DNA of 64,000 bases, from the NCBI GenBank assembly GCA_016214745.1, contig JACRNW010000012.1:4368-68367 (forward strand). The letters run 5' to 3'. The position numbers were made by a program, and so were the translations under genes. Under the pieces are notes generated by a model. The model saw only the letters and a list, made by a program, of their open reading frames with translations, was not told the DNA's origin and did not search any database. Below are positions 7,779 through 63,128 of the stretch, piece by piece. Within the stretch, counting starts at the first letter, position 1. Every line of letters begins with the position of its first letter. The stretch comes from Candidatus Falkowbacteria bacterium. Lineage in GTDB: Bacteria > Patescibacteriota > Patescibacteriia > XYB2-FULL-38-15.

Positions 7779-7879
7779 TGAACTTAGGCGGGAGGTTTTT
7801 GAACTGGTTTATAGTTCATAGTTCATGGTCAACTATCAACAACAAACTGTGAACTATTAACTATTAACTATCAACCGCT

Positions 7880-20406: not shown

Positions 20407-20509
20407 CTACAAATTACAAATTTTGATACAAATATACAAATTCTTGCTTACACGTTGATCTAATAAAAATATACTTTATCGCTATTTGTAAATGATTTGT
20501 AATTTGTAG
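20407..20509. mobile_element. AT-rich MITE-like element, copy A (TIR CTACAAATTACAAAT...ATTTGTAATTTGTAG).
   Basis: It is about 90% identical to the reverse complement of 41325..41432, including the internal caaatatacaaattcttgct..acgcgtt.atctaa. Confidence 0.65.
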
Positions 20510-22174
20510 TTATTCTATCAATTTATAAATTTTCCCCTCATCGTCTTTATATACCATAAGAAAGTTCCCGTCACTTTTTAAATTATTTTCCAGGGCGATA
20601 TGGTCTTTATCAACAAAAACATATTCTGAATGGAAATCATTTTTAACAATCTCGGAAATGTTTTGCCGCCTGCCGGTTGTGATATCAACCCATTCTTTAT
20701 GCAGGTCTTTATTATAATCATACATAAAAGTCGGATCAAGGCCGGCGATGTAATAATTGTGGGTGTTGTAATAAAAAAGCGCCGGAAAATCATCCCAGTC
20801 ATTATGAAAAATAATTGCTCCGGCCGGAGTATTATTTTTTAACCATTCCGCCGCGCCGCGATATTTATAGATGGAGCCGCCGGAAAGATAGAGTTGTTTT
20901 ATGGACCAAACGTTCCGCCCGGCAGTAAGCGGAATCATAATTAAAATATAAAGAATAACGAGGCTGGAAAAAATTTTTCTTTTTTGTCGCCAATTATTAA
21001 ATGCGGTCCAATATTTTTTAATTAAAGACAGCGGCTGATTTAAGGTAAAGGCGGATGAAAGAGTCGCAAAAGGAATGAAGTATTCAACATTGCGGCGGGA
21101 GCGCAAAGTCAGCGCCAAGAAAAAAAGCGCGAGAAAAGTTGAGGTGAGAATTTTTGTCTTTGTCTTGCGGTCGGTTAGAGCGGGTTTTTCTTTGCCAGCG
21201 AAATTTTTAAGAAAATTTATAAAAAATACAGTGAAAGAGAGTATCAATAAAATAAAAATAAAAGAAGAATTGGCGATGAGATCGCCCAAACCGTAAGGAT
21301 ACCACTCGGCTCCCACGCCGATTTTATCTTGATAATTAATAACGGCGATTTTTATAATTTGTTGCCAGTAAAAAAATAAATTTTTTGGAAAAAACGGATT
21401 TAGAACAACGCCGGCAACAAGGCCGCCAAAACACGCCGTAAGCAGTTTGATATTTTGTTTAGTGAAGACACAACGGAAAAAGTATGAAGTATAAAGTATG
21501 AAGTATAAAGTATATTTTTTTATTTTTTGAGCCAGGTTTTTGATACTTAATACTTGATACCCAATACGATCATCTATCTGTTTTTGATGAGAAAAATTTA
21601 TAATCGCGTCGCTTAAAACATAGAATGTGGTTAGAATAAACATCAGCGGCCAGCCGCCGTAAGTCCAAACATAAATAAAAGATAAAAGAAAAAGCGGCCA
21701 GATTTTTCGATTAAAAATAAAATAAAGGCCAAAGAGTAGGATTATCAGTGAAATAGATGAGGCCTTAGCCAGATTAATTCTAAAAATAAAAGGACTTGAA
21801 ACAAGAAGAATTAGACAATAAAAAATTGCGCCCCTAATTTTAAATTTTTGGAGAAACCAATAAAAAGTTAAAATCAAAAGCGCAGCGGAAAACGCGGTAA
21901 AAAGTTTTATACCGACCAGCGGGTCAAAAAAAGTAACAAAAGGAATGAGGGCGACGTGATATAAAAAATGGTGGTCGGTATAATAATTTTTCAAAACAGT
22001 AAATTGCAGCCAGGGAAAATCCCGGACAATCCCTTGGTCGCTGGTTAAGACCGCCATCTTGGCGTGGTAGAAAGAATCCGGATCGGGAAAAGTCGGGGAA
22101 ATTTGAAAATACGAAAAAAGAGAAAACGAAACGATGAAAAGCAGAAGAAATTTTAAGAGTTCAGTTTTTTTCAT
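20510..22174 (-). CDS. Polytopic membrane protein, putative GT-C-type glycosyltransferase.
   Basis: It has many TM helices and an N-terminal loop with FPDPDSFYHAK. A 13-nt tandem repeat (aagtatgaagtat)x3 lies inside the coding region at about 21470. Confidence 0.4.
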   Translation of the reverse strand: MKKTELLKFLLLFIVSFSLFSYFQISPTFPDPDSFYHAKMAVLTSDQGIVRDFPWLQFTVLKNYYTDHHFLYHVALIPFVTFFDPLVGIKLFTAFSAALLILTFYWFLQKFKIRGAIFYCLILLVSSPFIFRINLAKASSISLIILLFGLYFIFNRKIWPLFLLSFIYVWTYGGWPLMFILTTFYVLSDAIINFSHQKQIDDRIGYQVLSIKNLAQKIKKYTLYFILYTSYFFRCVFTKQNIKLLTACFGGLVAGVVLNPFFPKNLFFYWQQIIKIAVINYQDKIGVGAEWYPYGLGDLIANSSFIFILLILSFTVFFINFLKNFAGKEKPALTDRKTKTKILTSTFLALFFLALTLRSRRNVEYFIPFATLSSAFTLNQPLSLIKKYWTAFNNWRQKRKIFSSLVILYILIMIPLTAGRNVWSIKQLYLSGGSIYKYRGAAEWLKNNTPAGAIIFHNDWDDFPALFYYNTHNYYIAGLDPTFMYDYNKDLHKEWVDITTGRRQNISEIVKNDFHSEYVFVDKDHIALENNLKSDGNFLMVYKDDEGKIYKLIE

Positions 22175-23327: not shown

Positions 23328-24629
23328 TCATTTATTAAATAATTTTTTACGGCGGAGGAGCTTGTGATAGCCAATGGCAAAACGGTGGGCTTCATCGCGA
23401 ACTCGGAGCAAAATATCTTTGTGCAATTCAGCGACGCGGACGAGTTCAGGATTATTTTGATCGGCAATCAGCCGGTCTTGTTTGCGGTCAAAACCTTTGG
23501 CAACACCCAGCACCGGAATTTTTATTTTTTTCTCGGAGAGAATCTCGCGAACAGCGTTGATTTGCCCCCAGCCGCCGTCAACCAAAATTATATTTGGTAA
23601 TGGCCAATCAGAAAGATGCTTTAATCGTCGCGTCATTACTTCTTTCATCATCCCGACATCGTTTGGTGTGGTTAAAGTTTTAATTTTAAATTTTCGGTAT
23701 TCATTTTTATTTGGTTTACCATCTTCAAAAACAACCATGCTGCCGGTCGCCGAAGTGCCGCTGATGTTTGAAATGTCATAACCCTCAATTCGACCAAAAA
23801 TGTCAATTGTTCCGCTGGATACGAATAGCGAATCTTTTGCGAATTTGCGAATTCGTAAATTCGAAGTTAATTCGTTATTCGTATCCTTTGTCAAAATAGC
23901 CACATCCTGGATATGCTCCAGAGAAAAAATTTGATTGCGAAGTCGCGCTGCTTTTTCAAAATTTTCTTCGCGGCTCGCAATAGCCATTTCCTTTTTTAAA
24001 TTTTTAATGATTTTTTCTTTTTTTCCTTCAAAAAATAAAATTAAATGGTGGATGAGGCGGCGGTAATCTTTTATTGAAACAAATCCGGCGCAAGGTGCAG
24101 GGCATTGTTTTAAATGATAATGAAGGCACGGTTTTTTAGCCATAACCACGCAATCGCGGAAAGGAAAAATTTTCCGGCGCAGAATATCAAGCGCGGCGCG
24201 AAGCGAGGAGGCACTCGTGTACGGACCGAAAAGTTTGGCGATTTGTTTTTTCTCGCCGGATGTCATCCGAGCCAATTCTAATCCACGCAGTAAAAAAATC
24301 CGAGGAAATTTTTCTTTGCTGATCGCCACGTACAAAAACGATCTATCATCTTTTTCTTTAACATTATATTTTGGTAAATATTTTTTTATCAAATTGGCTT
24401 CCAAAATTAAAGCTTCAATCACGGTAGGAGTTTTTTGGTAATCAATATCTGCAATTTTTGAAACTAATTTTTCAATTCTAATATCGTGCGGTCGGTCAAA
24501 ATAGCTTTTTACCCGATCGCGGAGCGAAGTGGCTTTTCCGACATAAATAATTTTACCCACGGCATTTTTCATTAAATACATGCCCGGGGTTTTAGGAAAT
24601 TTTTTTATTTTATTTTTTAATTCCGGCAT
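23328..24629 (-). CDS. uvrC: Excinuclease ABC subunit C, short form. The start is reassigned to the internal Met.
   Basis: A GIY-YIG motif (GMYLMKNAVGKIIYVGKATSLRDRVKSYF), a UvrBC-interaction region, and a C-terminal RNase H-like endonuclease region are present. The longer ORF start at 24779 would read through the high-GC insert. Confidence 0.85.
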   Translation of the reverse strand: MPELKNKIKKFPKTPGMYLMKNAVGKIIYVGKATSLRDRVKSYFDRPHDIRIEKLVSKIADIDYQKTPTVIEALILEANLIKKYLPKYNVKEKDDRSFLYVAISKEKFPRIFLLRGLELARMTSGEKKQIAKLFGPYTSASSLRAALDILRRKIFPFRDCVVMAKKPCLHYHLKQCPAPCAGFVSIKDYRRLIHHLILFFEGKKEKIIKNLKKEMAIASREENFEKAARLRNQIFSLEHIQDVAILTKDTNNELTSNLRIRKFAKDSLFVSSGTIDIFGRIEGYDISNISGTSATGSMVVFEDGKPNKNEYRKFKIKTLTTPNDVGMMKEVMTRRLKHLSDWPLPNIILVDGGWGQINAVREILSEKKIKIPVLGVAKGFDRKQDRLIADQNNPELVRVAELHKDILLRVRDEAHRFAIGYHKLLRRKKLFNK

Positions 24630-27900: not shown

Positions 27901-30018
27901 GGGATGTGCTTCGGCATGTTTCGGGGATTTTTTTAATTCCCGAATTTCATCGCGCAAAATGGCGGCCAGCTCGAATTGTAAATTTTTCGCCGCCTCTTTC
28001 ATTTGCCTTTCTTTTTCGTTTATAATTTCTTCAATATTTTTTCCTTTTTCGCCGATAACATCCAGATCCAAAATATTTTTAACTTTTTCTTTTTTATCTT
28101 CTTCGCCGACAATATCTTTGATTTTCTTTTGAATAGTTTTTGGTGTGATGCCGTGTTTTTTGTTATAGTCCATTTGCGTTTTTCGCCGACGTTCGGTTTC
28201 GCGGATGGCGCGTTCCATTGAGCCAGTCATTTGATCGGCATAAAGTAAAACTTGCCCGTGGACATTTCTCGCCGCTCGGCCAATCGTCTGGATAAGCGAA
28301 GTTTCACTGCGCAAAAATCCTTCTTTGTCCGCGTCTAAAATGGCGACTAGGGTCACTTCCGGCAGATCCAATCCTTCGCGCAATAAATTAACGCCGACCA
28401 GAATATCAAATTTCCCCCGGCGAAATTCAGTCAGAATTTTTATCCGGTCCAATGTTTGAACCTCACTGTGGATGTAGTTAACTTTAAATTTTTTTTCCGC
28501 GAGATATTCGCTTAAATCCTCGGCCATTTTTTTAGTCAGAGTCGTGACAAGGACCCGTTCGTTTCGTTTTACGCGGTCGGCAATTCGTTCCATTAAATCA
28601 TCAACTTGAGATTTTTCACCGGAATTTTTTGGTGTGATCGGGCGAACAATAATTTCCGGATCAATCAAACCAGTCGGTCTGATAATTTGTTCAACAACTT
28701 GTCCGCTTCGAGTTAATTCATAATCCGCCGGCGTGGCCGAAGTATAAATTGTCTGCGGCATTCGCGTTTCAAATTCGCTGAATTTCAGCGGCCGATTATC
28801 GGCGGCGGAAGGCAGACGAAAACCAAAATCAATCAACGCTCTTTTTCGCGAAGCATCACCGTCATACATTCCGGAAATTTGCGGCACGGTGACATGTGAT
28901 TCATCAATTACCATTAGCCAATCGGATAGGTTGTGGTTATTTTTGCCGGGGGATACGAATTGCGAATCTTTTACGAATTTACGAATTTGCAAATTCGCAG
29001 TTAATTCGTTATTCGTATCCTTTTGTGATGAGCGCGGGAAATAATCTAAAAGTGTCTCCGGCGGTTCGCCCGCGGCGCGGCCAGAAAGATGGCGAGAATA
29101 ATTTTCAATCCCATGGCAGTAGCCGACTTCTTTTATCATTTCTAAATCATAATTGGTCCGGCGCTCCAATCGCTCGGCTTCAAGCAGTTTTCCATTTTTA
29201 TTAAAATAATCCAAGCGGTCTTTTAATTCTTCTTTGATTGTTTTGAACGCTCGCTCGCGTTCCGGGCCCAGCGTGACAAAATGTTTGGCCGGAAAAATCC
29301 AAACGTCGGATGGTTCATCTTTTATTTTTCTTGTTACTGGGTCAATCGCAAAAATATTTTTTATTTTCTGGTTGGCGGACTCTACTCGGTAAATAATTTC
29401 TTGGTTCACGGGCATTATTTCCAAAGTCTCCCCACGCAAACGAAATTCGCCGCGTTTTAAATCGGAGTTAGTCCGGTTAAATTGCATGGTGATTAACTGG
29501 TTCAATAAATCAGCGCGGGTGATAGTTTGATCTTTAGCCAAATGCAAAACAATTTTTTCATAGGTTTCCGGGGCGCCCAAACCATAAATACAAGAAACCG
29601 AAGCGACGATGATTACATCGCGCCGCGTCAAAAGCGCCTGAGTCGCGGCGTGGCGGAGGCGATCAATTTCGTCATTGATCATGGCTTCTTTTTCAATGTA
29701 AGTATCGGTTCGCGGCAAATATGCTTCAGGTTGGTAGTAATCGTAATAGGAAACAAAATATTCCACGGCATTATCCGGGAAAAATTCTCGAAACTCATTG
29801 CAAAGCTGCGCCGCCAGGGTTTTATTGTGGGCGATGACAAGAGTGGGTTTATTGATTTTTGCGATCACATTTGCCACAGTAAAAGTTTTGCCTGAACCGG
29901 TGACGCCGAGAAGCGTTTGATGACCGTAATTTTTTTTCAAACCACTAACAAGTTCGGCGATTGCTTTTGGCTGATCGCCCGATGGTTTAAATTTAGATTT
30001 TAATTTGAATTTGTTCAT
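27880..30018 (-). CDS. uvrB: Excinuclease ABC subunit B. The start is reassigned to MNKFKLKSKF.
   Basis: The sequence reads GDQPKAIAELVSGLKKNYGHQTLLGVTGSGKTF, with helicase motifs, a DESH box, and a C-terminal UVR domain (ELAAILRDEIRELK). Confidence 0.95.
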   Translation of the reverse strand: MNKFKLKSKFKPSGDQPKAIAELVSGLKKNYGHQTLLGVTGSGKTFTVANVIAKINKPTLVIAHNKTLAAQLCNEFREFFPDNAVEYFVSYYDYYQPEAYLPRTDTYIEKEAMINDEIDRLRHAATQALLTRRDVIIVASVSCIYGLGAPETYEKIVLHLAKDQTITRADLLNQLITMQFNRTNSDLKRGEFRLRGETLEIMPVNQEIIYRVESANQKIKNIFAIDPVTRKIKDEPSDVWIFPAKHFVTLGPERERAFKTIKEELKDRLDYFNKNGKLLEAERLERRTNYDLEMIKEVGYCHGIENYSRHLSGRAAGEPPETLLDYFPRSSQKDTNNELTANLQIRKFVKDSQFVSPGKNNHNLSDWLMVIDESHVTVPQISGMYDGDASRKRALIDFGFRLPSAADNRPLKFSEFETRMPQTIYTSATPADYELTRSGQVVEQIIRPTGLIDPEIIVRPITPKNSGEKSQVDDLMERIADRVKRNERVLVTTLTKKMAEDLSEYLAEKKFKVNYIHSEVQTLDRIKILTEFRRGKFDILVGVNLLREGLDLPEVTLVAILDADKEGFLRSETSLIQTIGRAARNVHGQVLLYADQMTGSMERAIRETERRRKTQMDYNKKHGITPKTIQKKIKDIVGEEDKKEKVKNILDLDVIGEKGKNIEEIINEKERQMKEAAKNLQFELAAILRDEIRELKKSPKHAEAHPGDPMKE

Positions 30019-31075: not shown

Positions 31076-31145
31076 AAACCCCGCCCCGATTTTGCCCCTC
31101 ACCCAACCCTCTCCCCGATGGGGAGAGGACTAAGGTGAAGGGGGT
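31076..31145. repeat. GC-rich hairpin repeat, copy R-f.
   Basis: The sequence is cccctcacccaaccctctccccgatggggagaggactaaggtgaaggggg. It shares the CCCCTCAC and CTCTCCCC-GNNG-GGGAGAG modules with the copies at 37533, 50699, 4249 and 39826. Confidence 0.7.
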
Positions 31146-36076: not shown

Positions 36077-36151
36077 TGGGGTGGCTACTGGGAGTTGAAC
36101 CCAGGCCAGTGGGACCACAACCCACTGTTCTACCGTTAAACTATAGCCACC
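36077..36151 (-). tRNA. tRNA-His (anticodon GTG).
   Basis: It has a G-1 extra nucleotide, acceptor GGTGGCTA/TAGCCACC, anticodon loop TTGTGGT, T-loop GGTTCAACTCC, and an encoded CCA. Confidence 0.75.
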
Positions 36152-36152
36152 A

Positions 36153-36228
36153 TGGTGACCCCGCTAGGAATCGAACCTAGATATCCAGCTTAGAAGGCTG
36201 GTGTTCTATCCATTGAACTACGGGGCCG
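36153..36228 (-). tRNA. tRNA-Arg (anticodon TCT).
   Basis: Cloverleaf: GGCCCCG-TA-GTTCAATGGATAGAAC-A-CCAGCCTTCTAAGCTGG-ATAT-CTAGGTTCGATTCCTAG-CGGGGTC-A-CCA. Confidence 0.75.
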
Positions 36229-36322
36229 TAATAAGTTAAAAGTTTAAAGTGAAAAGTTAAAAGTTTTTGAGTAAATTATTTTTTAATATAACAAACAATT
36301 TTCAGATTGTCAATCGTGAATT

Positions 36323-36499
36323 TCTCCCCTTAAGATAAGGGGAGATTAAGAGGGGTTATGAGCGGTGGATTTTAGTGGCCGGTTCATAACGCCCCCGCCC
36401 GCCACGCAAGCCAGCCCCGCCTGCAACGCTATGCTTGCATTAGCGGGCAGGTTGCTGGCGTTGCGGGCAGGCCCAGCCCCTCTTACCTTAAGAGGGGAG
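36323..36499. repeat. Structured GC-rich direct repeat, copy 1, flanking the xer gene (related to the R-a/R-b core).
   Basis: It is nearly identical to 37648..37827. The end hairpins are tctcccctta-ag-taaggggaga and cccctctta-cc-ttaagagggg. The core is gctggcgttgcgggcagg. Confidence 0.8.
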
Positions 36500-36502
36500 T
36501 TA

Positions 36503-37420
36503 TCATTTCCCGCGTCGGCGGCCGTGAAAACTTTTGTGCACGTCGCGAAGTTGTTGATTTGTGATATGCGTATAAATTTGCGTAGTAGTAATGGAAGAAT
36601 GGCCGAGCATGGCCTGGACCGAACGGATGTCGGCGCCGTTCATCAATAAATCCGTGGCGTAAGAATGGCGCATGGTGTGCGGCGTAACTTTTTTGGTGAT
36701 GCCGGCGATTTTAGAATATTTTTTTACGAGCCGTTCCACGCTCCGGGGAGTGAGAGCCGCTTCACTCTCATGCGCCCGGTCGTGGGAAACGAACAAAAAC
36801 GGTGAAACGTCTTGGCGCGCCTCCAGATATTGTTTGACCCAAAACTTGGCCTGGTTTGATAAAAAGACTATGCGCGGTTTGTCGCCCTTGCCGCGGACTG
36901 TAAATTCCTCTTTTTTTAAATTGACTTGTTCTTTTTTTAAATTTGCCAGCTCAGAAACGCGGAGTCCGGTGGAAAAAAGCATTTCCACAATCGCCTTGTC
37001 TCGTTTTTTTATAATTTCCGGCGTCTCGGCGAGCGTTGGCGCTTCAAGTAGCCGCTCCAAATCGCTTCCTTCTAAAAAATCCACCACGCGTTCGGGCATT
37101 TTGCCCAATTCAATTTTTTCCGCAGACAAAGTTTTGATGTCGCGCTTGGCCAGATATTTCAAAAAAGCTCGTAGGGCGATCAGATGATAATTTTGCGTAT
37201 TCTTTTTTAATTCTCTTCCTGTTTCGTCGGCAAAACGATTAAGCCAAAGGCGATACTGCCTAACCTTTTCTTGGGTAATGCCGGAAGGGGAGGAATTGCC
37301 TGCCCACTCGTTAAACCTTTTTAAATAAAAATCATAATTCCGTATGGTCTTGGAGGAACGGTTTTTTTCTATTTCCAAATATTCCAGAAATTGAGTGATC
37401 AAAGTGTTGAGGTTGGCCAT
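36503..37420 (-). CDS. xerC: Tyrosine site-specific recombinase, XerC/XerD-like.
   Basis: The N-terminal SAM-like domain reads FLEYLEIEKNRSSKTIRNYDFYLKRF. The catalytic C-terminus reads HTMRHSYATDLLMNGADIRSVQAMLGHSSITTTQIYTH. Confidence 0.85.
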   Translation of the reverse strand: MANLNTLITQFLEYLEIEKNRSSKTIRNYDFYLKRFNEWAGNSSPSGITQEKVRQYRLWLNRFADETGRELKKNTQNYHLIALRAFLKYLAKRDIKTLSAEKIELGKMPERVVDFLEGSDLERLLEAPTLAETPEIIKKRDKAIVEMLFSTGLRVSELANLKKEQVNLKKEEFTVRGKGDKPRIVFLSNQAKFWVKQYLEARQDVSPFLFVSHDRAHESEAALTPRSVERLVKKYSKIAGITKKVTPHTMRHSYATDLLMNGADIRSVQAMLGHSSITTTQIYTHITNQQLRDVHKSFHGRRRGK

Positions 37421-37462: not shown

Positions 37463-37520
37463 TTTACTATTGACAAAATCCTCAAAATGTGGTATATTTA
37501 ATTGTTAGTAAATAGTTCTT
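37463..37520 (+). promoter_or_regulatory. Conserved promoter-leader module (TTGACAaaatcctcaaaatgtggTATATTtaattgttagtaaa), paralogous to 4333 and 49596.
   Basis: Aligned by eye to 49594..49650 (ttgacaaaatggttaaaatgtgttattctaaattgttagtaaa) and to 4333..4375. Confidence 0.55.
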
Positions 37521-37532
37521 TTAAAGGTAAAA

Positions 37533-37610
37533 CCCCCTCACTCCAACTCTCTCCCCGAAGGGGAGAGAGAGTCTCCTCGCCCCATTGGGGAGAGGATTAA
37601 GGTGAGGGGG
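37533..37610. repeat. GC-rich hairpin repeat, copy R-e (double hairpin).
   Basis: The sequence ccccctcac...ctctccccgaaggggagagagagtctcctcgccccattggggagagg...gtgaggggg has flanking inverted repeats. Confidence 0.75.
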
Positions 37611-37647
37611 CAACAAGTTCACAGTTTTCTTTTGGCGGCGCTCTGGT

Positions 37648-37827
37648 TTCTCCCCTTAAGGTAAGGGGAGATTAAGAGGGGTTATGAAAGGTGGATTTTT
37701 AAAATCACAATTCATAACGCCCCCGCCCGCCACGCAAGCCAGCCCCGCCTGCAACGCTATGCTTGCATTAGCGGGCAGGTTGCTGGCGTTGCGGGCAGGC
37801 CCAGCCCCTCTTATCTTAAGAGGGGAG
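37648..37827. repeat. Structured GC-rich direct repeat, copy 2 (partner of 36323..36499).
   Basis: About 97% identical over about 175 bp. Confidence 0.8.
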
Positions 37828-37923
37828 GAGCGAGCACAATCAAAAGAAGGCTGGGAAACCGGCGCTTCCTCTTTGCCACATCGGCGAGGAGAAAGCTTTC
37901 GCGTAAGGCGGAGGCAAAAGGAA

Positions 37924-38391
37924 ATGAAGATGGATACCCTGCGTTCCGCGTCCCACCTGCAGCGCGAGATCGGCGACGAGCTGTTCGCGGCTCTCGTGAA
38001 CTCGGACAACACCGCGGCGGTGCGGAAGTTCGCCGCGACGCTCGTCAAGTCCGCCCTCCCGACCGAGATGACGGTCGGCGGGGTCACCTACGAGATCCTC
38101 TCGTTCCTCAAGGGGGACGAGAAGAGCGTGGTCGGCCACACCATGGTCGAGCGGGCGAAGGAGATGGGCGCCAACCTCGGGGAGGAGGATTGCGAGCGCT
38201 TCCTGAAGAACCAGTCCGACATCCCCGCCGCGCTCTGCGGCAAGGTCGCCTTCGTCTTCCCGGACTTGCGGCACCCGGACGACCGCGAGTACGTCGCGGA
38301 CCTCGACTGGGGCGGCGACGGCTGGTACCTGCTCTGGGGCTGGCTCTCGCGCGACTGGCGCGGCCGCGGTCGTCTCCTTCGCCGCAAGTAA
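37924..38391 (+). CDS. DGR target protein (156 aa, high GC) with a C-terminal variable region.
   Basis: RBS aaaggaa. The last roughly 45 codons (38262..38387) align to the TR at 38735..38870. Differences fall mostly at TR adenines (AAC->GGC/CGC/GAC/CTC; GAC->GGC). The 3' 15 nt are identical (cgtctccttcgccgc). Confidence 0.75.
   Translation: MKMDTLRSASHLQREIGDELFAALVNSDNTAAVRKFAATLVKSALPTEMTVGGVTYEILSFLKGDEKSVVGHTMVERAKEMGANLGEEDCERFLKNQSDIPAALCGKVAFVFPDLRHPDDREYVADLDWGGDGWYLLWGWLSRDWRGRGRLLRRK
38262..38387 (+). repeat. DGR variable repeat (VR).
   Basis: It is homologous to the TR. All TR AAC codons are substituted in the VR. An IMH-like GC-rich 3' end is present. Confidence 0.75.
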
Positions 38392-38456
38392 TGTTTTGTA
38401 ACTCGGCCCTTCAAAAAGGCCGTGTCGCTCGGACCCTTGGACACTCGGTTCCTCGG

Positions 38457-38500
38457 GCCCTCACACATTTCGTTGTGTGAGGGCCTATTTTTTTAAACTA
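38457..38500 (+). terminator. Perfect 12-bp hairpin downstream of the VR, followed by a T-run (terminator and/or DGR homing-associated stem-loop).
   Basis: The hairpin is ggccctcacaca-tttcgt-tgtgtgagggcc, followed by ctattttttt. Confidence 0.6.
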
Positions 38501-38734: not shown

Positions 38735-38870
38735 ATAATTCTGCGCAACCCGAACGGCAACCTCTACGTCGCCTACCTCAACTGGAACGACGACCGCTGG
38801 ATCGTGAACTTCAACTGGCTCGACAACGACTGGAACGACAACGATCGTCTCCTTCGCCGCCAGTCTCTTC
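38735..38870 (+). ncRNA. DGR template repeat (TR), a noncoding template rich in AAC codons.
   Basis: It contains seven in-frame AAC triplets where the VR has G/C-containing codons. The ORF called at 38711..39172 is the TR read in frame and overlaps avd on the other strand. Confidence 0.75.
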
Positions 38871-38900: not shown

Positions 38901-39209
38901 TTATTTTCGGAAGGATTGTAAATTTTTTATCCAACCACCAAGCATTATACCGGCGGACGAAAGTTTTTGGGAGAGCCGCGCGTATTTTCCGGTATCTATT
39001 CCTTTTGCTTCCCAGAGAATTGCCACAAAAAATTTCAGATTGTCTAATTTACGATTTAATTGCAGCAAAAAGTTTAATTTATCTTCGCGTCTTGTATATT
39101 GCGCGGTTAAGGCCAATTCCAAAATATTTACGAATAATTCGTCTATTTTTTTGCCGAGCGTGTAGCGTGTGAGGCGGGGCAGATGCGTTAAAAAACTATG
39201 CCACAACAA
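38901..39209 (-). CDS. avd: DGR accessory variability determinant (Avd, four-helix-bundle protein).
   Basis: It is 102 aa. The C-terminal LGGWIKNL resembles the Bordetella Avd LGSWIARV. Four-helix-bundle / 23S-IVS family features are present. It lies between the TR and the RT but is transcribed divergently from the RT. Confidence 0.65.
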   Translation of the reverse strand: MLWHSFLTHLPRLTRYTLGKKIDELFVNILELALTAQYTRREDKLNFLLQLNRKLDNLKFFVAILWEAKGIDTGKYARLSQKLSSAGIMLGGWIKNLQSFRK

Positions 39210-39234: not shown

Positions 39235-40362
39235 ATGGGAATCTCGGTAAAATTCCGTTGGGGGGGGGGATTTAAAGGGCGGATCGTTCCGAAAATTCAA
39301 TTGGCTCATAAATTTGAAGATATTATTTCTTTAGAAAATTTATTTTTGGCCTGGCAGGAATTTTTAGTTGGCAAAAAGGGTAAGCGCGACGTCCAGATTT
39401 TTGCTCGCGACTTGGCTGATAATATTTTAGCGCTCCACGAAGATTTAGCAAATAAAACTTATCGCCACGGCGGATATGAAAGTTTTTACGTCAACGATCC
39501 GAAACGCCGACATATTCATAAAGCGGCGGCGCGCGACCGTTTACTCCATCACGCCGTTTACAGAATTCTTTATCAGTTTTTTGAAAAAACATTTATTGCC
39601 GACTCCTTTTCCTGTCGCTTAGGGAAAGGAACACACAAGGCCATTAATCGTTTCCGGGCCATGGCTTTTCGGGTAAGCCAAAATCACACGCGGACGGTTT
39701 GGGTTTTGAAATGCGACATTAAAAAGTTTTTCGCGAGCATTGACCACGAGGTTTTACTTAAAATTTTGAAAGAATATATTCCGGATGAAAATATTTTGTG
39801 GCTGCTGAAAAATGTGATAGAAAGTTTTGCCACTCTCCCCCTCACCCCTGCCCGCAACGCCAGCGCTAGCGTGGCAGGCGGGCCAACCCTCTCCCCGAAG
39901 GGGCGAGGGGACGAAAACGGTGTTGGTCTGCCGCTTGGCAATTTGACCTCGCAACTTTTCGCCAATGTTTATATGAATGTTTTTGATCAGTGGGTTAAAC
40001 ATAAACTGAAAGCCAAAAATTATTTACGCTATGCCGACGACTTTGTTTTTCTTTCCGAAAATCGTGAGTGGCTTTTGAATATCGTGCCGCAGATTAAAAA
40101 GTTTTTGGCGGAAGAATTAAAACTGACGCTTCATCCAAAGAAAATTATTTTGAAAACCGTCGTTTCGGGCGTTGATTTTTTGGGTTGGGTGTGCTTCTCG
40201 GACCATCGCGTCCTGCGGCAGACGGCGCGGCGGCGGATGTTAGCGCGTATTTTGGAAAATCCCACACAAGAAACTCTGCAATCATATTTAGGTCTTCTGA
40301 AACACGGCAATACTCTTGGAGTACGGTGGCAGACTCTTATAAATTATTGGTTGTGGGGGTGA
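39235..40362 (+). CDS. DGR reverse transcriptase.
   Basis: Motifs present: ENLFLAWQEFLVGKKGKR; GLPLGNLTSQLFANVYMN (DGR-type motif 4); LRYADDFVFL (YADD). There is no maturase/X domain and no intron structure. A G10 tract sits at 39260..39269 near the N-terminus. An in-frame GC-hairpin repeat insert lies at 39826..39912. Confidence 0.85.
   Translation: MGISVKFRWGGGFKGRIVPKIQLAHKFEDIISLENLFLAWQEFLVGKKGKRDVQIFARDLADNILALHEDLANKTYRHGGYESFYVNDPKRRHIHKAAARDRLLHHAVYRILYQFFEKTFIADSFSCRLGKGTHKAINRFRAMAFRVSQNHTRTVWVLKCDIKKFFASIDHEVLLKILKEYIPDENILWLLKNVIESFATLPLTPARNASASVAGGPTLSPKGRGDENGVGLPLGNLTSQLFANVYMNVFDQWVKHKLKAKNYLRYADDFVFLSENREWLLNIVPQIKKFLAEELKLTLHPKKIILKTVVSGVDFLGWVCFSDHRVLRQTARRRMLARILENPTQETLQSYLGLLKHGNTLGVRWQTLINYWLWG
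39826..39912. repeat. GC-rich hairpin repeat, copy R-b, inserted in-frame within the RT gene.
   Basis: It is the reverse complement of 4249..4330. It translates as ATLPLTPARNASASVAGGPTLSPKGRGDENG without stops. Confidence 0.8.
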
Positions 40363-41324: not shown

Positions 41325-41432
41325 CTACAAATTACAAATCATTTACAAATATACAAATAATAACGGAACGTGTTTTGTTAGATTAACGCGTCAGCAAGAA
41401 TTTGTATATTTGTATTAAATTCGTAATTTGTA
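41325..41432. mobile_element. AT-rich MITE-like element, copy B (inverted relative to copy A at 20407).
   Basis: Shares the same TIRs and internal sequence with copy A. Confidence 0.65.
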
Positions 41433-41515
41433 GTAATTTAATTTTTGATCGCCAGACAAGTAGGCTTCTTCTGGGTCACCAGAAGTCTAAAGTTTGGCGG
41501 TCAAAGCAAAAAATT

Positions 41516-49593: not shown

Positions 49594-49650
49594 GGGTTGA
49601 CAAAATGGTTAAAATGTGTTATTCTAAATTGTTAGTAAAATTGGTCTTTT
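49594..49650 (+). promoter_or_regulatory. Conserved promoter-leader module (ggTTGACAaaatggttaaaatgtgtTATTCTaaattgttagtaaa).
   Basis: Paralogous to 4333 and 37463. Confidence 0.55.
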
Positions 49651-49810
49651 AAACTTATTCTTAGCCTTATTTTGGCGGTTTTATGACCATCAAAACAAGG
49701 CTGGGAGTGGTTTCCCGGCTGTTCTTGCCTTCCGGCGAATCGGACAAGGTGTCTGGCAATGGTGCCGAGTGCTTTGTTTGACTACCGGCGGGTGAGGGAG
49801 GAAAGAGACG

Positions 49811-50479
49811 ATGGCAAGGGCGACGATTAGTCAGGTGCACGAACTGGGGGAGCAGATCAGGCGCGGGCAGATTCCGGCGTGGAAGGTGAGGATCGTTTTC
49901 GGGCTTTCCGAAAAGGAAACGGAAACGCCGTTCCACATGTTCCTCAGCCTGGTAAAGGCCGCCAAGGCCGAGATCGTCTCGGCCGAGCAGATGCAGATGA
50001 TCCTCGAGGGAAGGTGCGAATCCTTCGGGATTTTCAAGGTGACGGTGGATTACGGTCTCACTCTCTCCGAGATGATCGCCGCTGGCCGTTATGACGTCGT
50101 AGACAGCTACATCACTACCGAGTATTTCCCTGTGACCGGCAAGGGGAGGGTAGAGCGCGAGGTCGTCGCGGTTTACCTGAATCGTGAAGTAAAGGACGGT
50201 GATGTCATCGCCGAGCTCGCCCTTCGCGGTTTCCGGCCCGCCAAGATCGAGGATCTTCTTGCTTTGAGCGCACTGCATCCCGATTTTCGGGAAGGATTTC
50301 CGACGACGGTGCTTGGTCCTAAGGGAGATCTGAGCGGTGATCGCGGCTGTTTCTACACGTGTCACGGTCTGACTGAGGGCATGTGGGTCTTGGCTCACGG
50401 CTGGTTCAATCTCCGCCTGTGCGTTCCCTGCTGGGGGAAGTCCTGTCGGTTTCTGGCCGTCCGCAAGGACGCTGCGTAG
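49811..50479 (+). CDS. High-GC hypothetical protein (222 aa).
   Basis: SD gagggagga. About 60% GC. C-terminal Cys/Trp-rich. No motif was recognised. Confidence 0.45.
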   Translation: MARATISQVHELGEQIRRGQIPAWKVRIVFGLSEKETETPFHMFLSLVKAAKAEIVSAEQMQMILEGRCESFGIFKVTVDYGLTLSEMIAAGRYDVVDSYITTEYFPVTGKGRVEREVVAVYLNREVKDGDVIAELALRGFRPAKIEDLLALSALHPDFREGFPTTVLGPKGDLSGDRGCFYTCHGLTEGMWVLAHGWFNLRLCVPCWGKSCRFLAVRKDAA

Positions 50480-50698
50480 TTCGAACCTCATCCTGACACT
50501 TTCGGCGTAAGCCGAGAGAGTCGGGTGGAACGGACCTGCTGACTCCTACCTTTGGTGTAACAACCGGGGTAGGAGTCTTTTTTATTTCGCGAAAACGCAA
50601 AAGAAACAAAGACGCAAAAACCCCAACTGCAAGTTTTGAATTTTGGTCATTGGGATTTATTTGGAATTTGATGTTTTGGATTTTGGATTTTTGATATC

Positions 50699-50752
50699 GT
50701 CCCCCTCACCTCAATCCTCTCCCGCAAGGGGAGAGGAGGAAATTGTGGGGAT
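50699..50752. repeat. GC-rich hairpin repeat, copy R-g. It is preceded by a ttttggat tandem repeat at 50641..50695.
   Basis: The sequence is ccccctcacctcaatcctctcccgcaaggggagaggagg. Confidence 0.7.
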
Positions 50753-50835
50753 TTATTCTCTTTACAATTTTTATATTTTAATGTAAATTTAACAAATAAC
50801 TTTTAACAATTAACCGTTAACTATTAACTAATTGT

Positions 50836-56925: not shown

Positions 56926-57003
56926 GGCCCTATCGTCTAGTCTGGTCTAGGACACCACGCTTTCAATGTGGTAACCCGGGTTCGAATCCCGGTGGGGCTA
57001 CCA
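56926..57003 (+). tRNA. tRNA-Glu (anticodon TTC).
   Basis: Cloverleaf: GGCCCTA-TC-GTCTAGTCTGGTCTAGGAC-A-CCACGCTTTCAATGTGG-TAAC-CCGGGTTCGAATCCCGG-TGGGGCT-A-CCA. The 3' end is overlapped by IR1-L and by the recombinase ORF tail. Confidence 0.75.
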
Positions 57004-58525
57004 GAAAAAAACTTTTCGGATTTTCGGTAAAAATTTGGTTGACGGCGCACAGCGCCGCCCACGGGTTTTTCGGCGAATTGTCGCCGTTTTTTATTTCCCC
57101 CCACACCACTTGTCCGCCCGTAAGGCGGAGGTTCGAGCCAAATATTTTTTTGGCCATAACCTTTTTGTCTAAAAGGTTATGCTCCCGCGCGATTTTAGGC
57201 AGATTCTCTGCCTCTTTTATCCATTCCTTCATCGGTTCGATCCAGCCAGTCCGCTTTTGTTTCAGGTGGACAATTTTTTCTTCCAGCGACTTTTTCTCAC
57301 TTATAAATTTAGCCTTCTTTTCTAAGTATACCTCTCGCTCAATATCCTGCTCCAAGTAACTATCTAAAAGTCGCTGTAGCTTCATTTTTAGGGACTCTAT
57401 GGTATTTTTGATCTCTTGAACAAAAGCGGCCGAGGATTGGGCATCTTGGTTTTTGTCTTTTTCGAGCAAGGCGGTTAATTGCGTTGCCCAATCCTCGCTC
57501 AAAGAAAATTTTTCAAGCAAAAGGGATGTCTGCTCATCTAAACACTCCTGGCGAATACAGGGCTCGTCACATTTTATTGCCTTGTTCTTTTTGGTGCAGT
57601 GATAATAAATATAATCATGAGTATTACCATTCTTTTGTTTTTTCACCCTGTATTCGCCAGTTATGCCCATACCACAAGTGCCACATCTTAACATGCCGCA
57701 AAATGCTTGCGGTTCATTTTTTGTTTTGTGGTGCGGTCTGCTTTTTTGCTTCAAAATATTCTGTACTTGGTCAAAAATTTTCTTTGAGATGACTGGCTGA
57801 TGTTTGCCCTCATAAAGTTCTTTACCGTACCTAAAAAATCCAACATAAAACGGATTGGAAAGGATAAAAGAAACTCTGTCTCGTTTCCAGTGTTTACCAT
57901 TACGCGATGTTATTCCTTGTTGCGCCAAAAAGTTAGAGATATCCTCTAGTCGTGAATTGCCTTGCGCGTATAGTTCAAAAGTTTTTCGCAAGATTTCCGC
58001 TTGCTTTTTATCCACAGCCACATTTTTAGTGCGGGGGTCGTTGAAATACCAAAACGGCGCAAGGCCGGGATACTCTCCGCGCCTAACTTTTTGGCGCATA
58101 CCTCGCTTTACATTTTCGGATAATGAATCAACATAATATTTGCTTTGCCCAAAAGCAATATTTAGCATAAATTTCCCTTGTGGCGTGCTTTCAAACCAAA
58201 ACTGCGGAAATTTTAAGGCCGTAATATGCCCGCAATCTAAAAGATAAATTATCTTTCCACCATCCACAGAATTGCGCGCTAATCGGTCGGGATGCCACGA
58301 AATTATGCCATTTGCTTCCCCGCGCTCTATTCTTTCTAACATGGTATTAAAAACCGGTCTGCCTGGAATTTTAGCCGATTGTTTTTCTATTAACTCCTCA
58401 ACAATAATCAGACCTTCATTTCTGGCAAAGGCGCGCAATTCTGTGGTCTGGGCTTCAATACTCAAAACTTGCTTATCTTCCACATCCGTGGATTTGCGGG
58501 CATACAAAAAGAATTTTTGTTCCAT
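56963..58525 (-). CDS. Large serine recombinase (resolvase/invertase N-domain + recombinase domain + zinc ribbon). Its C-terminal roughly 45 aa are encoded by IR1-L.
   Basis: Catalytic N-terminus LYARKSTDVEDKQVLSIEAQ ... GIISWHPDRLARN. Zinc ribbon CGMLRCGTCGMGITGEY..YYHCTKK. A C-terminal coiled coil is present. The start is reassigned to MEQKFFLYARKST. Confidence 0.85.
   Translation of the reverse strand: MEQKFFLYARKSTDVEDKQVLSIEAQTTELRAFARNEGLIIVEELIEKQSAKIPGRPVFNTMLERIERGEANGIISWHPDRLARNSVDGGKIIYLLDCGHITALKFPQFWFESTPQGKFMLNIAFGQSKYYVDSLSENVKRGMRQKVRRGEYPGLAPFWYFNDPRTKNVAVDKKQAEILRKTFELYAQGNSRLEDISNFLAQQGITSRNGKHWKRDRVSFILSNPFYVGFFRYGKELYEGKHQPVISKKIFDQVQNILKQKSRPHHKTKNEPQAFCGMLRCGTCGMGITGEYRVKKQKNGNTHDYIYYHCTKKNKAIKCDEPCIRQECLDEQTSLLLEKFSLSEDWATQLTALLEKDKNQDAQSSAAFVQEIKNTIESLKMKLQRLLDSYLEQDIEREVYLEKKAKFISEKKSLEEKIVHLKQKRTGWIEPMKEWIKEAENLPKIAREHNLLDKKVMAKKIFGSNLRLTGGQVVWGEIKNGDNSPKNPWAALCAVNQIFTENPKSFFLVAPPGFEPGLPH
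56999..57135. repeat. Inverted repeat IR1-L (137 bp), a perfect inverted copy of 58737..58873. It starts in the tRNA-Glu 3' end.
   Basis: The reverse complement of 58737..58873 matches base-for-base as read. It contains the hairpin ccgcc-cgtaa-ggcgg. Confidence 0.85.
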
Positions 58526-58736
58526 ATATTTTTTATTAAAATTTAAATAGCCGCCCTGGTGCAGCCAACCCAAGAGAAAGTCTCAAGGATTGATTCCAAG
58601 ACGGCTATTAAAAAAGACTTTCTTGATTTGGTTGGCTGCGTATTAAGTATACCACAAATATAAAAAACAACAAAACAAAAATTCTTTTTGTCGGGCAAAG
58701 CAAATAACGAGACAGAATTTCAAATCGCGCGGGTGG

Positions 58737-58873
58737 CGAACCTCCGCCTTACGGGCGGACAAGTGGTGTGGGGGGAAATAAAAAACGGCGACAATTCGCC
58801 GAAAAACCCGTGGGCGGCGCTGTGCGCCGTCAACCAAATTTTTACCGAAAATCCGAAAAGTTTTTTTCTGGTA
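58737..58873. repeat. Inverted repeat IR1-R.
   Basis: Partner of 56999..57135. It generates the spurious ORF 58688..58918. Confidence 0.85.
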
Positions 58874-58887
58874 TCACTTTACAACGA

Positions 58888-59009
58888 AATACGAACCTTT
58901 TTTGAACAAAATTATTAGGGGTTTATGGTGTAGGGGCTGGCCGCCCCTACAACCCCGCAAATTCGTGCGGGCAAAAAGGAAGGGGTTTTAGGGGAGGGAA
59001 TTTTTGCCC
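58888..59009. repeat. Inverted repeat IR2-L (122 bp), a perfect inverted copy of 63129..63251, composed of three hairpins.
   Basis: gaaatacgaaccttttttgaacaaaattattaggggtttatggtgtaggggctggccgcccctacaaccccgcaaattcgtgcgggcaaaaaggaaggggttttaggggagggaatttttgccc equals the reverse complement of 63129..63251. Confidence 0.85.
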
Positions 59010-62000
59010 AGTTGGTACGCCGCGATACTCAAATCGAACGAAGTAAAAGTCCTCGCCACCCAAGTATTTATCCATTTTTTCATTGTGTGTCAAGAAAAAT
59101 CCTCGGCTTTCAAACCACTGTCGCACTCGTTCGTTCATTATCATTGCATATGATGTGCTTGCTCGCGCTTCCGCTTCAATCGGTACTTTGTATGCTGTCG
59201 CGATATCAAGGACGCGCTCCATCATTTTTCTTGCCAAACCTTTTCCTTGGTAGTTTGGCAAAATGGCCATATCATGCACATGAGCTGCGCGTTCGCTGGG
59301 ATTGACTTCCGATTCTTCAGGAAGAACAAGTAGGTAACCAGCGGCTTCTTTACCGGATCTGACGACAAAACTCGACGCGGCGCCGGGCACTTCCAATTCG
59401 CGCTGCTTGCGCAAAATATCAGCGATGTGCGCTTTCCCTTGAGTCATTCCTTGCGGATAAATTGCTTCTTCAAGTTTTGCAATGAGTTCCACATCTCTTT
59501 CAGTAAGATTGGCGTAAGTAATGGCTTCGTCTAAAGATTCAACGCCGCGAATTTTAGGCATATCATAAATTTGGTCGCCGCGCGCGTCGGAATATCCAAC
59601 ATGCGTTTTCGGCTCGTACACATTTTGTTCAAGCCTTCCACCAGGCGGAATCAAATCTGAATAACCAGTCCCAACTTTTACCGGACGACTCGTATATTCT
59701 GCCCAAAATGTTTGGTACACACGCGCTAAAAGCGGGGAAAGATTTTTGTAATTATTCGCCACCTCGATATTATCCAAGATCACCACATCTGAATTATCTC
59801 GACGATTCCGGCTGTCGACGATAACGGATTGCGCAACAATGCGTCCATTGTATTTGATAGTGAAGTATTGAGTGGAAGGATTAAACATGTAGTCAGTATT
59901 TTTGGAGTCGCCAAACGGCATGCAACAATCCGTATAGTTTCCACACACCCACCCTTCAGGGTCTGATTTTGCGTGAACTTGTGCTTCAACCAATGGACCA
60001 ACATCAACATTTTGTTCTTGAAGCAAGCGAATAACATCCTCCTCAATATCAACGGGTATATTTTGAAAAAGATCAGGTACTTCCATTTGTTTTTCGCCCA
60101 TTTTTCGGCCTTTGATTAGTTGCTTGAGTTGAAAGAATAACCCCTTAATGTCTTTAGCGGTGCCGCGGATTTTCATTTTTTGAGAACCTAATCCTTCTTT
60201 TAGGGCTTCAGTTAAGGCTCGGCCGGCAAAAATACGGCGGTGCGGTTCAAATGGTTGCTCGCTGTCCAATTTTCCCTCTGCGAGATCGTGAAAATCTGCT
60301 CTGCGTTTTAATTTTTCAAGCGCGCCAAGATTAAATCCTGGGGCGGCGGTAATTTCTAAAATTTCAGGAGGCAAACCGGAAAGATCAAGATTAGATTCAA
60401 CTGCAAACACTCGTTTTTTTAATTCACGCAAAGATGACACTGGACCATGATTTTGAAACGGATCGCGTTCTTTGTTATATCGTGGCAGGAAGTTAATAAA
60501 TTCTTGATTATCATCCATTGTCTGTATTCCATTCAAAATGCCTTTTGCTTCAGCTGGTTCAAGTCGTCGAATATTTGGCACCCAAAAAAGTACATCATGC
60601 CAATTTGCCAATCGTCCGTCGGTTCCTCGCGTTGCGTTAAACCGCAAAAGATAATTCTGCACCACCGTGCCGCCCGTATATTCTGCCGCTTCTTTATACC
60701 AACCTCTGATTTCTGGTGTTTGAGCCGCGAGACATAGTCTGAAATCAAGATCGTTTTTTGATTCAGGGGTTTCTGCAAAAATCTTTTGCCATTCGCGGCC
60801 TTCTGCGCTCGCGCGCCATTCGGCATAACGCACGAGGCCATTTGGGTCGCGCAAAACATAATCATTAGCGTACTCGTAATACATCTCAACTTCTGCCTGC
60901 GACACTGCGGTTTGTAATTCCGCTGGCCAATCAGCGACGGCAAAAGAAAGATCATCGCCTTCGTGTCCGTCAACAATACCTTTTAGATATCGCTGTTTAT
61001 CATGTGCTAAAGCAACGCCTCTCAAATCCTGTCCATGTTCCAATGCCTGAACGACAAGTCCAAGAGTTGCCTGTTTTCCTTGCTGTTCAGTTTGTTCTCT
61101 GCCATAACCACCGGCTTCCTGTTGTCCTAAAAGTGCAGCGATTAAATTACCATGTTGTTCAAGATATTTATTTAATTTATCTTGAGGCACGTCTGCAACG
61201 GATAAATCATAACGGCCCCAGTCAACCCACTGCTGATAAAATTTTGTTCCTTCAGCGCGATAGGGATTTTTCAAAAAAACTTGCAAGGCCAGCCAGTGCA
61301 TGCGCTTGCCTTCAAAAAATAAATCACGGCAAGCCCTTACGCCGATGACTTCTTCCCATGTTTTTCCTTCCGCTCGTTTTCCAAGCCGCTTTCGCGCCGC
61401 TTCAATTCTTGGCGCTTCGCGTTGCTGTAAATACTGCCAGACGCCTTTTTCAATGAGTTTGTGCGCTTCTGCTAACTGTTTTTTCAGTTTATCTGGTTCC
61501 ATTTTACTTACATCAAATCCGAGTTTTTCCAAAAGTTGCCAGCCGCTCATTTGACGGGAAACATCTCTATCATCAGCGGCGAGTATGCCTTTGGCGCGTT
61601 CCGGTCCTACGGCCTTCAAAAAATCATAAACCACCGCGTCGGAATAGTTATACGGCGACTGTTCTCCTCTGCGACAACGAAATTGCTCAATAAGTTCTGC
61701 GGTTTCCGGGTCTGCTTTTGCCGCGCGCAAACCTAAGGTCTCACGAACGCCAGTTTTTACTTGGGCAACCGCATTTTCTCTATCAATTTTTCCAAAAATA
61801 ACAGGCTTGTCATAAAATTTAGAAAGCACAAAATCAATTGTCGCTCCTTGCCGCTCGCTCTCGTTTGGTTCGGCGAAAAGTCGTTCCAGTCGTCTTGAAG
61901 TTCGCTCAAAATTTTGATAATCACGCAAAGCGTCACCAGACAGCAAGCCATATTTTTTTGCTATGGCCTCATACTTAAAATGTAATTGGCGCATGACCCT

Positions 62001-62933: not shown

Positions 62934-63128
62934 AAATATTAAAATATTAAAATGATGCTAAATCACTACTCATAATTTATCATAAATCGAGTTCTAAAGC
63001 AATGAGGAGCAATACTTGCGCGCGCACGGGCGGGTGGGGCAAGCGCAAATAGTTTCGGCGGCGCATTCGCGTAAGCGAATACGAAAACTCGCGCCGTCGG
63101 CGAAAAAGCGGCGGGCGAAAATAAGGGC

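Follow-up and report, generated by a model that had tools for sequence, protein, structure and literature searches.

The window analysed here, a 64-kb stretch of a contig from a low-GC Candidatus Falkowbacteria bacterium (Patescibacteria, or Candidate Phyla Radiation, CPR), carries seven GC-rich hairpin repeats, some of which lie in and around a diversity-generating retroelement (DGR), and these repeats are the subject of our analysis. Genes for tRNA-His and tRNA-Arg (36077-36227, minus strand) are followed by an xer-type tyrosine recombinase gene (36503-37420, minus strand), the DGR target gene (37924-38391, plus strand) with its variable repeat (VR, 38290-38385), the template repeat (TR, 38765-38860), bAvd (38901-39209, minus strand) and the DGR reverse transcriptase (RT) gene (39301-40362, plus strand), after which the next gene encodes ribosomal protein S15. 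Between TR and VR there are 27 mismatches in 96 positions, and 18 of these fall on TR adenines. The RT protein is 100% identical to an NCBI entry from Candidatus Falkowbacteria. We refer to the copies by letter in window order: A (4249), B (31076/31093), C (36321), D (37533), E (37647), F (39826) and G (50699), with xer located between C and E, and F inside the RT gene.

An earlier note, made from the letters of the window alone, had presented the seven copies as one modular family of stable hairpins occurring in both orientations. All seven are present where it placed them, and both orientations do occur; instead of a single family, however, the copies comprise three kinds of element that are nested in one another: TM units, CC elements and a 177-nt composite. 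With up to three mismatches allowed, the inner palindrome CTCTCCCCGNNGGGGAGAG is found at six sites (12 matches over both strands) as compared to 0.08 matches expected in shuffles, the pattern CCCCTCACY-N5-YCTCTCCC at five sites (0.01 expected), and A, C, E and F each contain the 18-mer GCTGGCGTTGCGGGCAGG without mismatch, four matches where 0.01 were expected; CGCTAGCG is restricted to A and F within the window. A and F are reverse complements of each other, with 96% identity over 73 nt and 98.5% over 65 nt (64/65). C and E, 177-181 nt long and with sharp ends, are 99% identical over 117 nt, the differences being confined to one hairpin loop. Folding of each copy yields strong z-scores for B, D and G (-3.3 to -5.8) and for C and E (-6.7 to -10.3), and weaker ones for A and F (-0.7 to -2.8).

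The TM unit consists of three blocks with the consensus CCCTCNCCC-N3-6-GGGNGAGGG-N3-GGGNGAGGG; such units make up B, D and G as well as the outer shell of A and F. Copy A (4249-4330, plus strand) is one unit that holds a 36-nt CC element in its second loop and ends 3 nt before a -35 box (TTGACA at 4333). Copy B (31093-31145, minus strand), located between two convergent terminators, is a unit (31096-31129, minus strand) with a fourth block that pairs with block 3. Copy D (37533-37610) is built of two inverted units (37535-37569, minus strand, and 37574-37608, plus strand) within the DGR target gene's 5' leader. Copy F (39826-39912, minus strand) is again a unit with a 36-nt CC element (39847-39882) in the second loop, in frame in the RT gene, and copy G (50699-50752, minus strand; unit at 50703-50737) forms the right edge of a 1.2-kb indel, approximately 20 nt upstream of the promoter-like TTTACA of the H+-PPase gene.

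Over the 27 specified positions of the TMECO consensus, B has one substitution and both halves of D, as well as G, have three; A and F fit the consensus after removal of the 36-nt insert, and the RT-gene copies of two relatives (loci L001 and L002, see below) match it exactly. Without its CC insert F reads CCCTCGCCCCTTCGGGGAGAGGGTTGGGGTGAGGGG and is identical at 34 of 36 positions to the commonest TMECO of E. coli K-12 (Table 1 entry 7, PMC4666352), and matches to D are present in 4747 of 5426 complete E. coli genomes, the median being seven places and the identity 80-95%. Given this fit to the consensus and the E. coli matches, the TM module is the already named BoxC/PIT/TMECO repeat. The motif is known from E. 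coli and from over 260 genomes; in vitro it adopts an intrastrand triplex, and it shows no strand bias, occurs in inverted pairs, has no promoter or terminator activity and marks rearranged loci (Holder et al. 2015, NAR, PMC4666352). The units in the window share its three-block sequence, its inverted pairing (D), its lack of strand bias and its location at variable loci, since all copies vary in presence among relatives and G adjoins the 1.2-kb indel. They differ in that the host is a low-GC CPR bacterium, that two units (A and F) hold another palindrome in the second loop, that the fourth block of B closes a full palindrome, and that F lies in frame within a protein gene, whereas the E. coli copies are all intergenic; intergenic location, which the other window units share, is a descriptive trait of the K-12 repeats and does not belong to the definition of the motif. 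At least 120 IMG/VR contigs, most of them with 50-70% GC, contain the left half of the TM motif (here and below, metagenome and viral-contig counts are lower bounds, among the matches listed). A DGR locus of Yanofskybacteria (L016) contains direct repeats of approximately 120 nt (6295-6415 and 7680-7800), each with a D-type double TM unit, on either side of a 213-aa open reading frame (ORF) with a DGR-target-like C-terminus.

The CC element is an imperfect palindrome, 25-83 nt long, in which the ends (CCCGCCYGC...GCGGGCAGG) are conserved and slightly asymmetric and the interior varies; the 18-mer is its 3' arm. In at least ~50 low-GC, CPR-like metagenome contigs the 18-mer is held by a 42-nt hairpin, CCCGCCCGCCACGCAAGCCAGC-TT-GCTGGCGTTGCGGGCAGG, the consensus of which is identical in at least 21 metagenome loci representing ~19 distinct flank contexts; matches to the 18-mer core in high-GC contigs were judged to be due to chance. 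The 36-nt variant CCCGCCTGCCACGCTAGCGCTGGCGTTGCGGGCAGG is the insert of A and F; in A it lies at 4279-4314 on the plus strand, as detected both by regular-expression match and by covariance model R1 (58.7 bits, E=1.4e-11). The covariance model was built from 18 CC variants and found diverged copies in the RT loci of Terrybacteria and other Patescibacteria, in which the ends are kept round a variable hairpin. As the model scores the forward strand far above the reverse, the CC element is oriented. Counting of covariation on the model alignment was given up, most rows being identical and palindromic matches entering on both strands. The exact 42-nt element was also observed in two metagenome contigs of higher GC, L149 (64%) and L131 (54%), the flanks in L149 resembling those in the low-GC L103/L203; judging from these sequences, the CC element may reach beyond CPR genomes.

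C (36321-36499, plus strand), located between the xer stop codon and the -35 box of the tRNA-Arg/His promoter (36313-36285, minus strand), and E (37647-37827, plus strand), which occupies the apical loop of a leader hairpin that is itself conserved, are two copies of a 177-nt composite in which four hairpins follow one another. The two outermost are end hairpins; between them come first a GTTATGA...TCATAAC hairpin whose loop is variable, then a CC element of the 42-nt type that contains a 36-nt variant in its loop. The nested CC elements span 36394-36471 in C (plus strand; 36-nt variant in the loop at 36416-36451) and 37722-37799 in E (plus strand; inner 36-nt unit at 37744-37779). Nesting takes two forms, the loop that receives the CC element being either loop 2 of a TM unit or that of a second CC element; the latter form is also seen in metagenome loci L146, L161 and L178, with a related composite in L141. 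About 15 of 48 distinct CC sites are in frame in long ORFs (among the matches listed), which by motif reading are UvrD/PcrA-, GatA-, MnmA-, Dus- and TatD-like. Both orientations are represented in ORFs (10 same-strand, 7 opposite), all reading frames are used, and the unit lengths of 36, 42, 45, 51 and 78 nt are multiples of three. Rfam, at gathering and permissive thresholds, returned tRNAs and chance miRNA-like matches only, with no family fitting the repeats; searches of viral contigs with the 18-mer and of GenBank phages with the 42-mer gave nothing meaningful among the matches listed; and literature searches by DNA string, on other repeat families and on CPR repeats, found nothing, CCCTCTCCC/GGGAGAGGG alone leading to the triplex paper. 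With nothing in Rfam, the phage database or the literature searched, the CC element and the 177-nt composite appear to be unnamed.

Comparison with relatives establishes that all seven insertions are lineage-specific: none of the copies, or in the case of F its CC insert, is found at the orthologous position in close relatives. The syntenic loci come from the genome of one relative (L001), the closed 886-kb genome of a second (L002, L343 and L345) and two metagenome contigs (L342/L344 and L346), and the YchF, UvrB and RT proteins of these relatives are 82-94% identical to the window versions. A is absent from L344 and L345, and the L346 spacer holds three GTCATTGCGAG-type elements instead. B is missing from the corresponding spacer in L342 and L343, where the two convergent terminators abut. 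The C site is empty in L002 and holds a different GC hairpin cluster in L001; the leaders of both lack D. L002 lacks G along with the adjoining 1.2-kb segment and has another element at that place. The TM unit of F is present in the RT genes of L001 and L002, but the 36-nt CC insert is not: the window RT gene differs from that of L002 by exactly the 36-nt unit, which lies inside a GGGG run in TM loop 2 and is accompanied by no duplication.

These results agree with the broad REP/MITE-like reading (MITE, miniature inverted-repeat transposable element) of the earlier note, the repeats being dispersed, palindromic and near-identical, and variable in presence at each of the seven sites when close relatives are compared. 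Its association of the repeats with GC-rich 'islets' stands in part: G adjoins the indel, but the 'islet' genes flanking B are conserved in relatives. The idea that the islets are extra DGR targets was rejected, as TR comparison matched the known VR only and BLASTP detected no similarity among islet proteins. The tandem repeats next to the hairpins are real (4211-4240, 36233-36265 and 50674-50695), but many intergenic spacers of the window have, upstream of promoters, short AT-rich tandem repeats whose period is 7 nt (AAGTTAA, TTAACTA, TTTTGGA and similar), with further runs at 7829-7875, 9375-9408, 21479-21514 and 50789-50830. Their nearness to the hairpins reflects a shared location and not a specific link.

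In the RT, F encodes ATLPLTPARNASASVAGGPTLSPKGRGDENG, 32 residues between ...IESF and GLPLGNLTSQLF. Across 82 CPR RT loci this loop is 6-8 aa long in most and 12-49 aa in ~20; in these ~20 it is GC-rich (0.5-0.72, as compared to 0.3-0.45 in the flanks) and folds strongly. Of the 30 closest homologues, ~26 have loop expansions, with peptides such as several hairpin repeats typically give on translation (PLTPTLSPNGRGD, PLTPPRGGGE, LDSRFRGNDK and RLLRRSAPRNDK). For several of the inserts there are matching intergenic copies, either at the same CPR locus or at other ones. The RT loop is an insertion hot spot. In the AlphaFold model of the RT the insert is a low-confidence loop (residues 178-206, predicted local distance difference test score, pLDDT, <50) between confident helices, which suggests that it is tolerated as a loop. 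A second variable RT loop, located before the YADD motif (alignment columns ~383-408, between KHKLK and YxRYADDF), carries inserts in P0004, P0006, P0048 and P0118, with peptides typical of other translated hairpin repeats.

In-frame repeats of another kind are found in two repair genes of the window. An AT-rich palindromic repeat, unrelated to the hairpins, lies in frame in UvrC (23802-23889) and UvrB (28936-29023); the two copies are 86% identical, each is itself an inverted repeat, and the repeat adds ~24-30 residues (DTNNELT(A/S)NL(Q/R)IRKF(V/A)KDS..FVS). It is missing from a 94%-identical UvrB (P0121) and from the UvrC of relatives, and other UvrB homologues have different inserts at the same site. 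AT-rich palindromes of TACAAAT-like units in spacers (window 20422-20509 and 41325-41433; L001 8021-8138 and 12031-12140) are another dispersed palindromic family.

Upstream of the DGR target gene, a sigma-70-type promoter (37470-37498, plus strand; TTGACA, 17 nt, TG-TATATT), conserved in L001, L002 and L010, would transcribe D and E ahead of that gene. The leader hairpin that brackets E (37627-37857, plus strand) has the stem halves TTCTTTTGGCG and CAAAAGAAGGCTGGGAA, in the forms CCCAGC-TTTCTTTTG and CAAAAGAA-GGCTGGG. In its basal form the loop is 13 nt long, as in L010 and at window 49680-49692, within a second leader copy (49667-49707); the loop is occupied by E in the window, by a TTCTCGAC-type hairpin in L001 and by a GTCATTGCGAG...CTCGCAATGAC element in L002. 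The association with the DGR that the earlier note had drawn holds in so far as copies lie in the leader hairpin loop and the RT loop, both permissive hot spots, but no DGR function is demonstrable. The promoter (TTGACAAAAT..TGTGNTAT) and the leader hairpin (CCCAGCTTTCTTTTG / CAAAAGAAGGCTGGG) are conserved together at window 37470-37857 and 49597-49707, L001 8170-8380 and 20558-20640, L002 7890-8122 and L010 7400-7533. They are also located upstream of a GC-rich gene (49811-50479) with a C-terminus like that of DGR targets (...RFLAVRK), and may be a shared regulatory leader of DGR-target-type genes.

We consider it probable that each of the seven copies arose by a recent insertion and that the inserted DNA repeats are small, selfish, palindromic and non-coding, belonging to three kinds, which nest in one another. 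The repeats have been copied within the genome, as the matching pairs A/F and C/E show. They have landed in spacers by promoters and terminators, in the apical loops of hairpins, including each other's, and in permissive protein surface loops; in proteins, frame-keeping insertions alone survive. The same permissive sites are reused by unrelated repeat families, and orientation relative to transcription is not consistent. The repeats would act at the level of DNA and not as RNAs. TM units can fold as a hairpin and, in vitro, as an intrastrand triplex. New copies would be copied in at transiently single-stranded or cruciform DNA without target duplication, possibly by template switching or gene conversion, or by a hairpin-specific nuclease or transposase acting in trans.

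Several points limit this interpretation. That insertion makes no target-site duplication is read from a single boundary (n=1), that of the CC insertion in the RT gene as compared to L002, the sole one resolved to the base. Copy counts cover the 64-kb window and not the whole source genome. Flank complementarity at 48 CC sites is strong at a minority only, many sites having none. Among ~30 window ORFs scanned with Pfam there is no RAYT (Y1) gene, the window not having been scanned exhaustively for transposases, and tblastn found no GIY-YIG gene in the window or the syntenic loci. With A, C and G next to promoter -35 boxes and D and E within a 5' leader, some regulatory effect is possible, and the near-identity of TM units across phyla could also be produced by selection on a structure or a protein-binding site. 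The flank-complementarity test led us to reject universal hairpin-loop targeting by CC elements: as many CC sites lack flanking complementarity, loop targeting is a tendency and not a rule. CC elements have terminal inverted repeats, as a MITE derived from a DDE insertion sequence would, but the one resolved insertion lacks the target-site duplication that would flank them in a MITE; no insertion sequence was seen in the window, and no dedicated search was made for a parent insertion sequence with the same ends.

A lead as to the mobilising enzyme comes from the neighbourhood of the CC elements in other genomes. In 7-8 of 48 distinct contexts, among the matches listed, a CC element precedes a GIY-YIG ORF of 78-90 aa (Pfam GIY-YIG, E=2e-16) by 15-35 nt and is embedded in the D-loop of a 5' tRNA-gene fragment, and an intact copy of that tRNA gene follows the ORF. 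The adjacency could reflect mobilisation by a structure-specific nuclease or, equally, a hot spot that both share; small stand-alone GIY-YIG nucleases would be the best lead for the mobilising enzyme, as candidates only. ARAGORN, run after excision of the CC element, found no intact tRNA gene as insertion target, because the upstream pieces are 5' fragments only. In the phage T4, a GIY-YIG homing endonuclease is encoded in a tRNA gene cluster (PMC2330249). At the GIY-YIG loci L098, L100, L104, L129, L148, L150, L178 and L198 the tRNA fragment covers positions 1 to ~31; the hairpin repeat in its D-loop is usually the 42-nt CC element, and other GIY-YIG loci carry different hairpins at the same position. 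In L022 and L027 the GIY-YIG ORF is located between long inverted repeats, and in L065 it lies beside the 5' end of the RNase P RNA.

The GIY-YIG loci invite a wider and decidedly speculative extension, namely a CPR ecosystem of nested palindromic 'nano-elements' that would be copied by a structure-specific enzyme, most plausibly small stand-alone GIY-YIG nucleases, and preferentially into the apical loops of DNA hairpins. The targets would be leader hairpins, other elements, the D-loops of tRNA fragments and permissive protein loops such as that of the DGR RT, and this would also explain the cross-phylum spread of BoxC.

The rival that fares best, although we regard it as unlikely, is that the hairpins are functional cis-acting structures selected in place and not mobile: RNA leaders or attenuators, mRNA-stabilising or terminator hairpins, DNA insulators at promoters, or accessory hairpins for DGR target recognition. 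D and E do follow a strong promoter and precede the DGR target gene, with E in the conserved leader hairpin; A, C and G lie directly upstream of -35 boxes; and the folding is very stable. Retrohoming of the Bordetella phage DGR requires a GC hairpin just 3' of VR, a precedent that favours such a role, but no copy in the window is located a few bases 3' of VR/IMH, and the hairpin present there (38455-38486) is an ordinary terminator. Orientation relative to genes is inconsistent (E is sense, C antisense and F antisense in its ORF, and CC elements in ORFs are found on either strand), the same sites in relatives are empty or hold unrelated elements, no U-tract follows the hairpins, and no Rfam family matches. 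The literature, moreover, finds the TM motif without promoter or terminator activity (PMC4666352). Given the promoter and leader positions, a side effect on expression is possible, but such an effect is unable to explain the distribution of the repeats.

Less probable still is local generation at non-B DNA with no donor copy, through hairpin-templated synthesis, slippage or convergent triplex tracts. TM motifs are tied to genomic instability (PMC4666352), the same hot spots are hit repeatedly, and the recurrence across phyla could be convergence. However, the 64 of 65 nt shared by A and F include arbitrary loop bases, the 42-nt CC consensus is identical in its ~19 unrelated contexts, and C and E are near-identical over more than a hundred nucleotides; identity of this extent calls for templated copying from an existing copy.

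We give very little credence to the suggestion of the earlier note that the hairpins are recombination sites of the adjacent Xer, be they attC-, dif- or att-like, with the direct repeats C and E delimiting an xer cassette. C and E are indeed direct repeats 1.3 kb apart that bracket xer, the imperfect hairpins recall attC sites, and the double-TM repeats of L016 bracket a DGR-target-like ORF in direct orientation. Yet xer occupies the same place between the tRNA genes and the DGR in both L001 and L002, where nothing or a different hairpin cluster is found at the C site and elements of unrelated type at the E site. The distance from xer to A, B and G is 6-33 kb, TM units are present in thousands of E. 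coli genomes and CC elements inside housekeeping ORFs, and, by reading of their sequences, the element ends have neither the 11-6-11 (28-bp) dif core nor the R''/L''-L'/R' GTTRRRY of attC. Conservation of xer in relatives without C or E means that the recombination-site idea fails and, by synteny, that C and E do not mark a mobile xer cassette; the recombinase appears to be a bystander with no role in the mechanism of the repeats. Finally, chance likeness among GC-rich low-complexity stretches, of the sort that other GC-rich stretches in the genome and the shuffle-like folding of A and F might suggest, is already refuted, its likelihood being negligible, by the 4-12 motif matches observed against 0.01-0.08 expected, the absence of TMECO consensus matches from 20 local shuffles and the long near-identical pairs A/F and C/E.

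Of the two readings that the earlier note had offered, the REP/MITE-like one is right in kind and the recombinase one is wrong. A different recombinase gene is found elsewhere in the window: a gene for a large serine recombinase (56963-58573) is bracketed by perfect inverted repeats of 137 nt (56999-57135 and 58737-58873) that begin inside the 3' end of tRNA-Glu, and a second perfect inverted pair (58887-59009 and 63129-63251) brackets a 1328-aa ORF with a GNAT domain; the region 56926-63251 may be an integrated or invertible element.

Several known repeat systems resemble the one described here. Like the REP/REPIN-RAYT repeats (PMC3116915, PMC3733652), the window repeats are short, imperfect, GC-rich palindromes that are dispersed, often in inverted pairs and mainly extragenic. 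They lack a GTAG or CGTC head, their ends instead reading CCCCTCAC, CCCGCC and CTCCCCTTAAG, and these end motifs are not listed in PMC3733652. Frequent insertion into ORFs and nesting set them apart as well, and no RAYT was seen in the ORFs scanned. The small dispersed repeats of cyanobacteria, as Elhai et al. reportedly described in Genome Res in 2008 (also mentioned in PMC3116915), are tiny palindromes that insert into one another and into hairpin tips and have no transposase of their own; they differ in sequence and phylum, and the likeness is one of description only. The GC clusters of yeast mitochondria are likewise GC-rich palindromic mobile repeats of an AT-rich compact genome (PMC4478555), but that genome is an organelle's and the sequences are different. 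Rickettsia palindromic elements (RPEs) insert in frame into protein genes, and the enzyme that mobilises them is not known (PMC10969869). The elements described here share with RPEs the in-frame location of palindromic repeats in unrelated housekeeping genes, with the ORF kept and the repeat placed in tolerated protein loops; the likeness is one of mode of action, and the mobilising enzyme is not known in either case. The elements here are shorter (36-42 nt as compared to ~100-150 nt), GC-rich in an AT-rich genome, nested and from another host phylum.

The BoxC/triplex motif of E. coli, then, reaches the Candidate Phyla Radiation, where it can survive inside a protein-coding gene, and the CC family is now defined by its conserved ends, with a working covariance model. 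Tiny CPR genomes tolerate RPE-like in-frame repeats, in the DGR RT, UvrB and UvrC here and in UvrD, GatA and MnmA elsewhere. For annotation, this accounts for the peculiar insertions of low complexity (PLTPTLSPKGRGD, PARNASASVAGG and similar) that are seen in CPR proteins, and cautions against calling them functional domains. A single hairpin loop that is refilled by unrelated elements, together with the adjacency of CC elements and GIY-YIG genes, offers a tractable handle on how repeats that encode no enzyme move.

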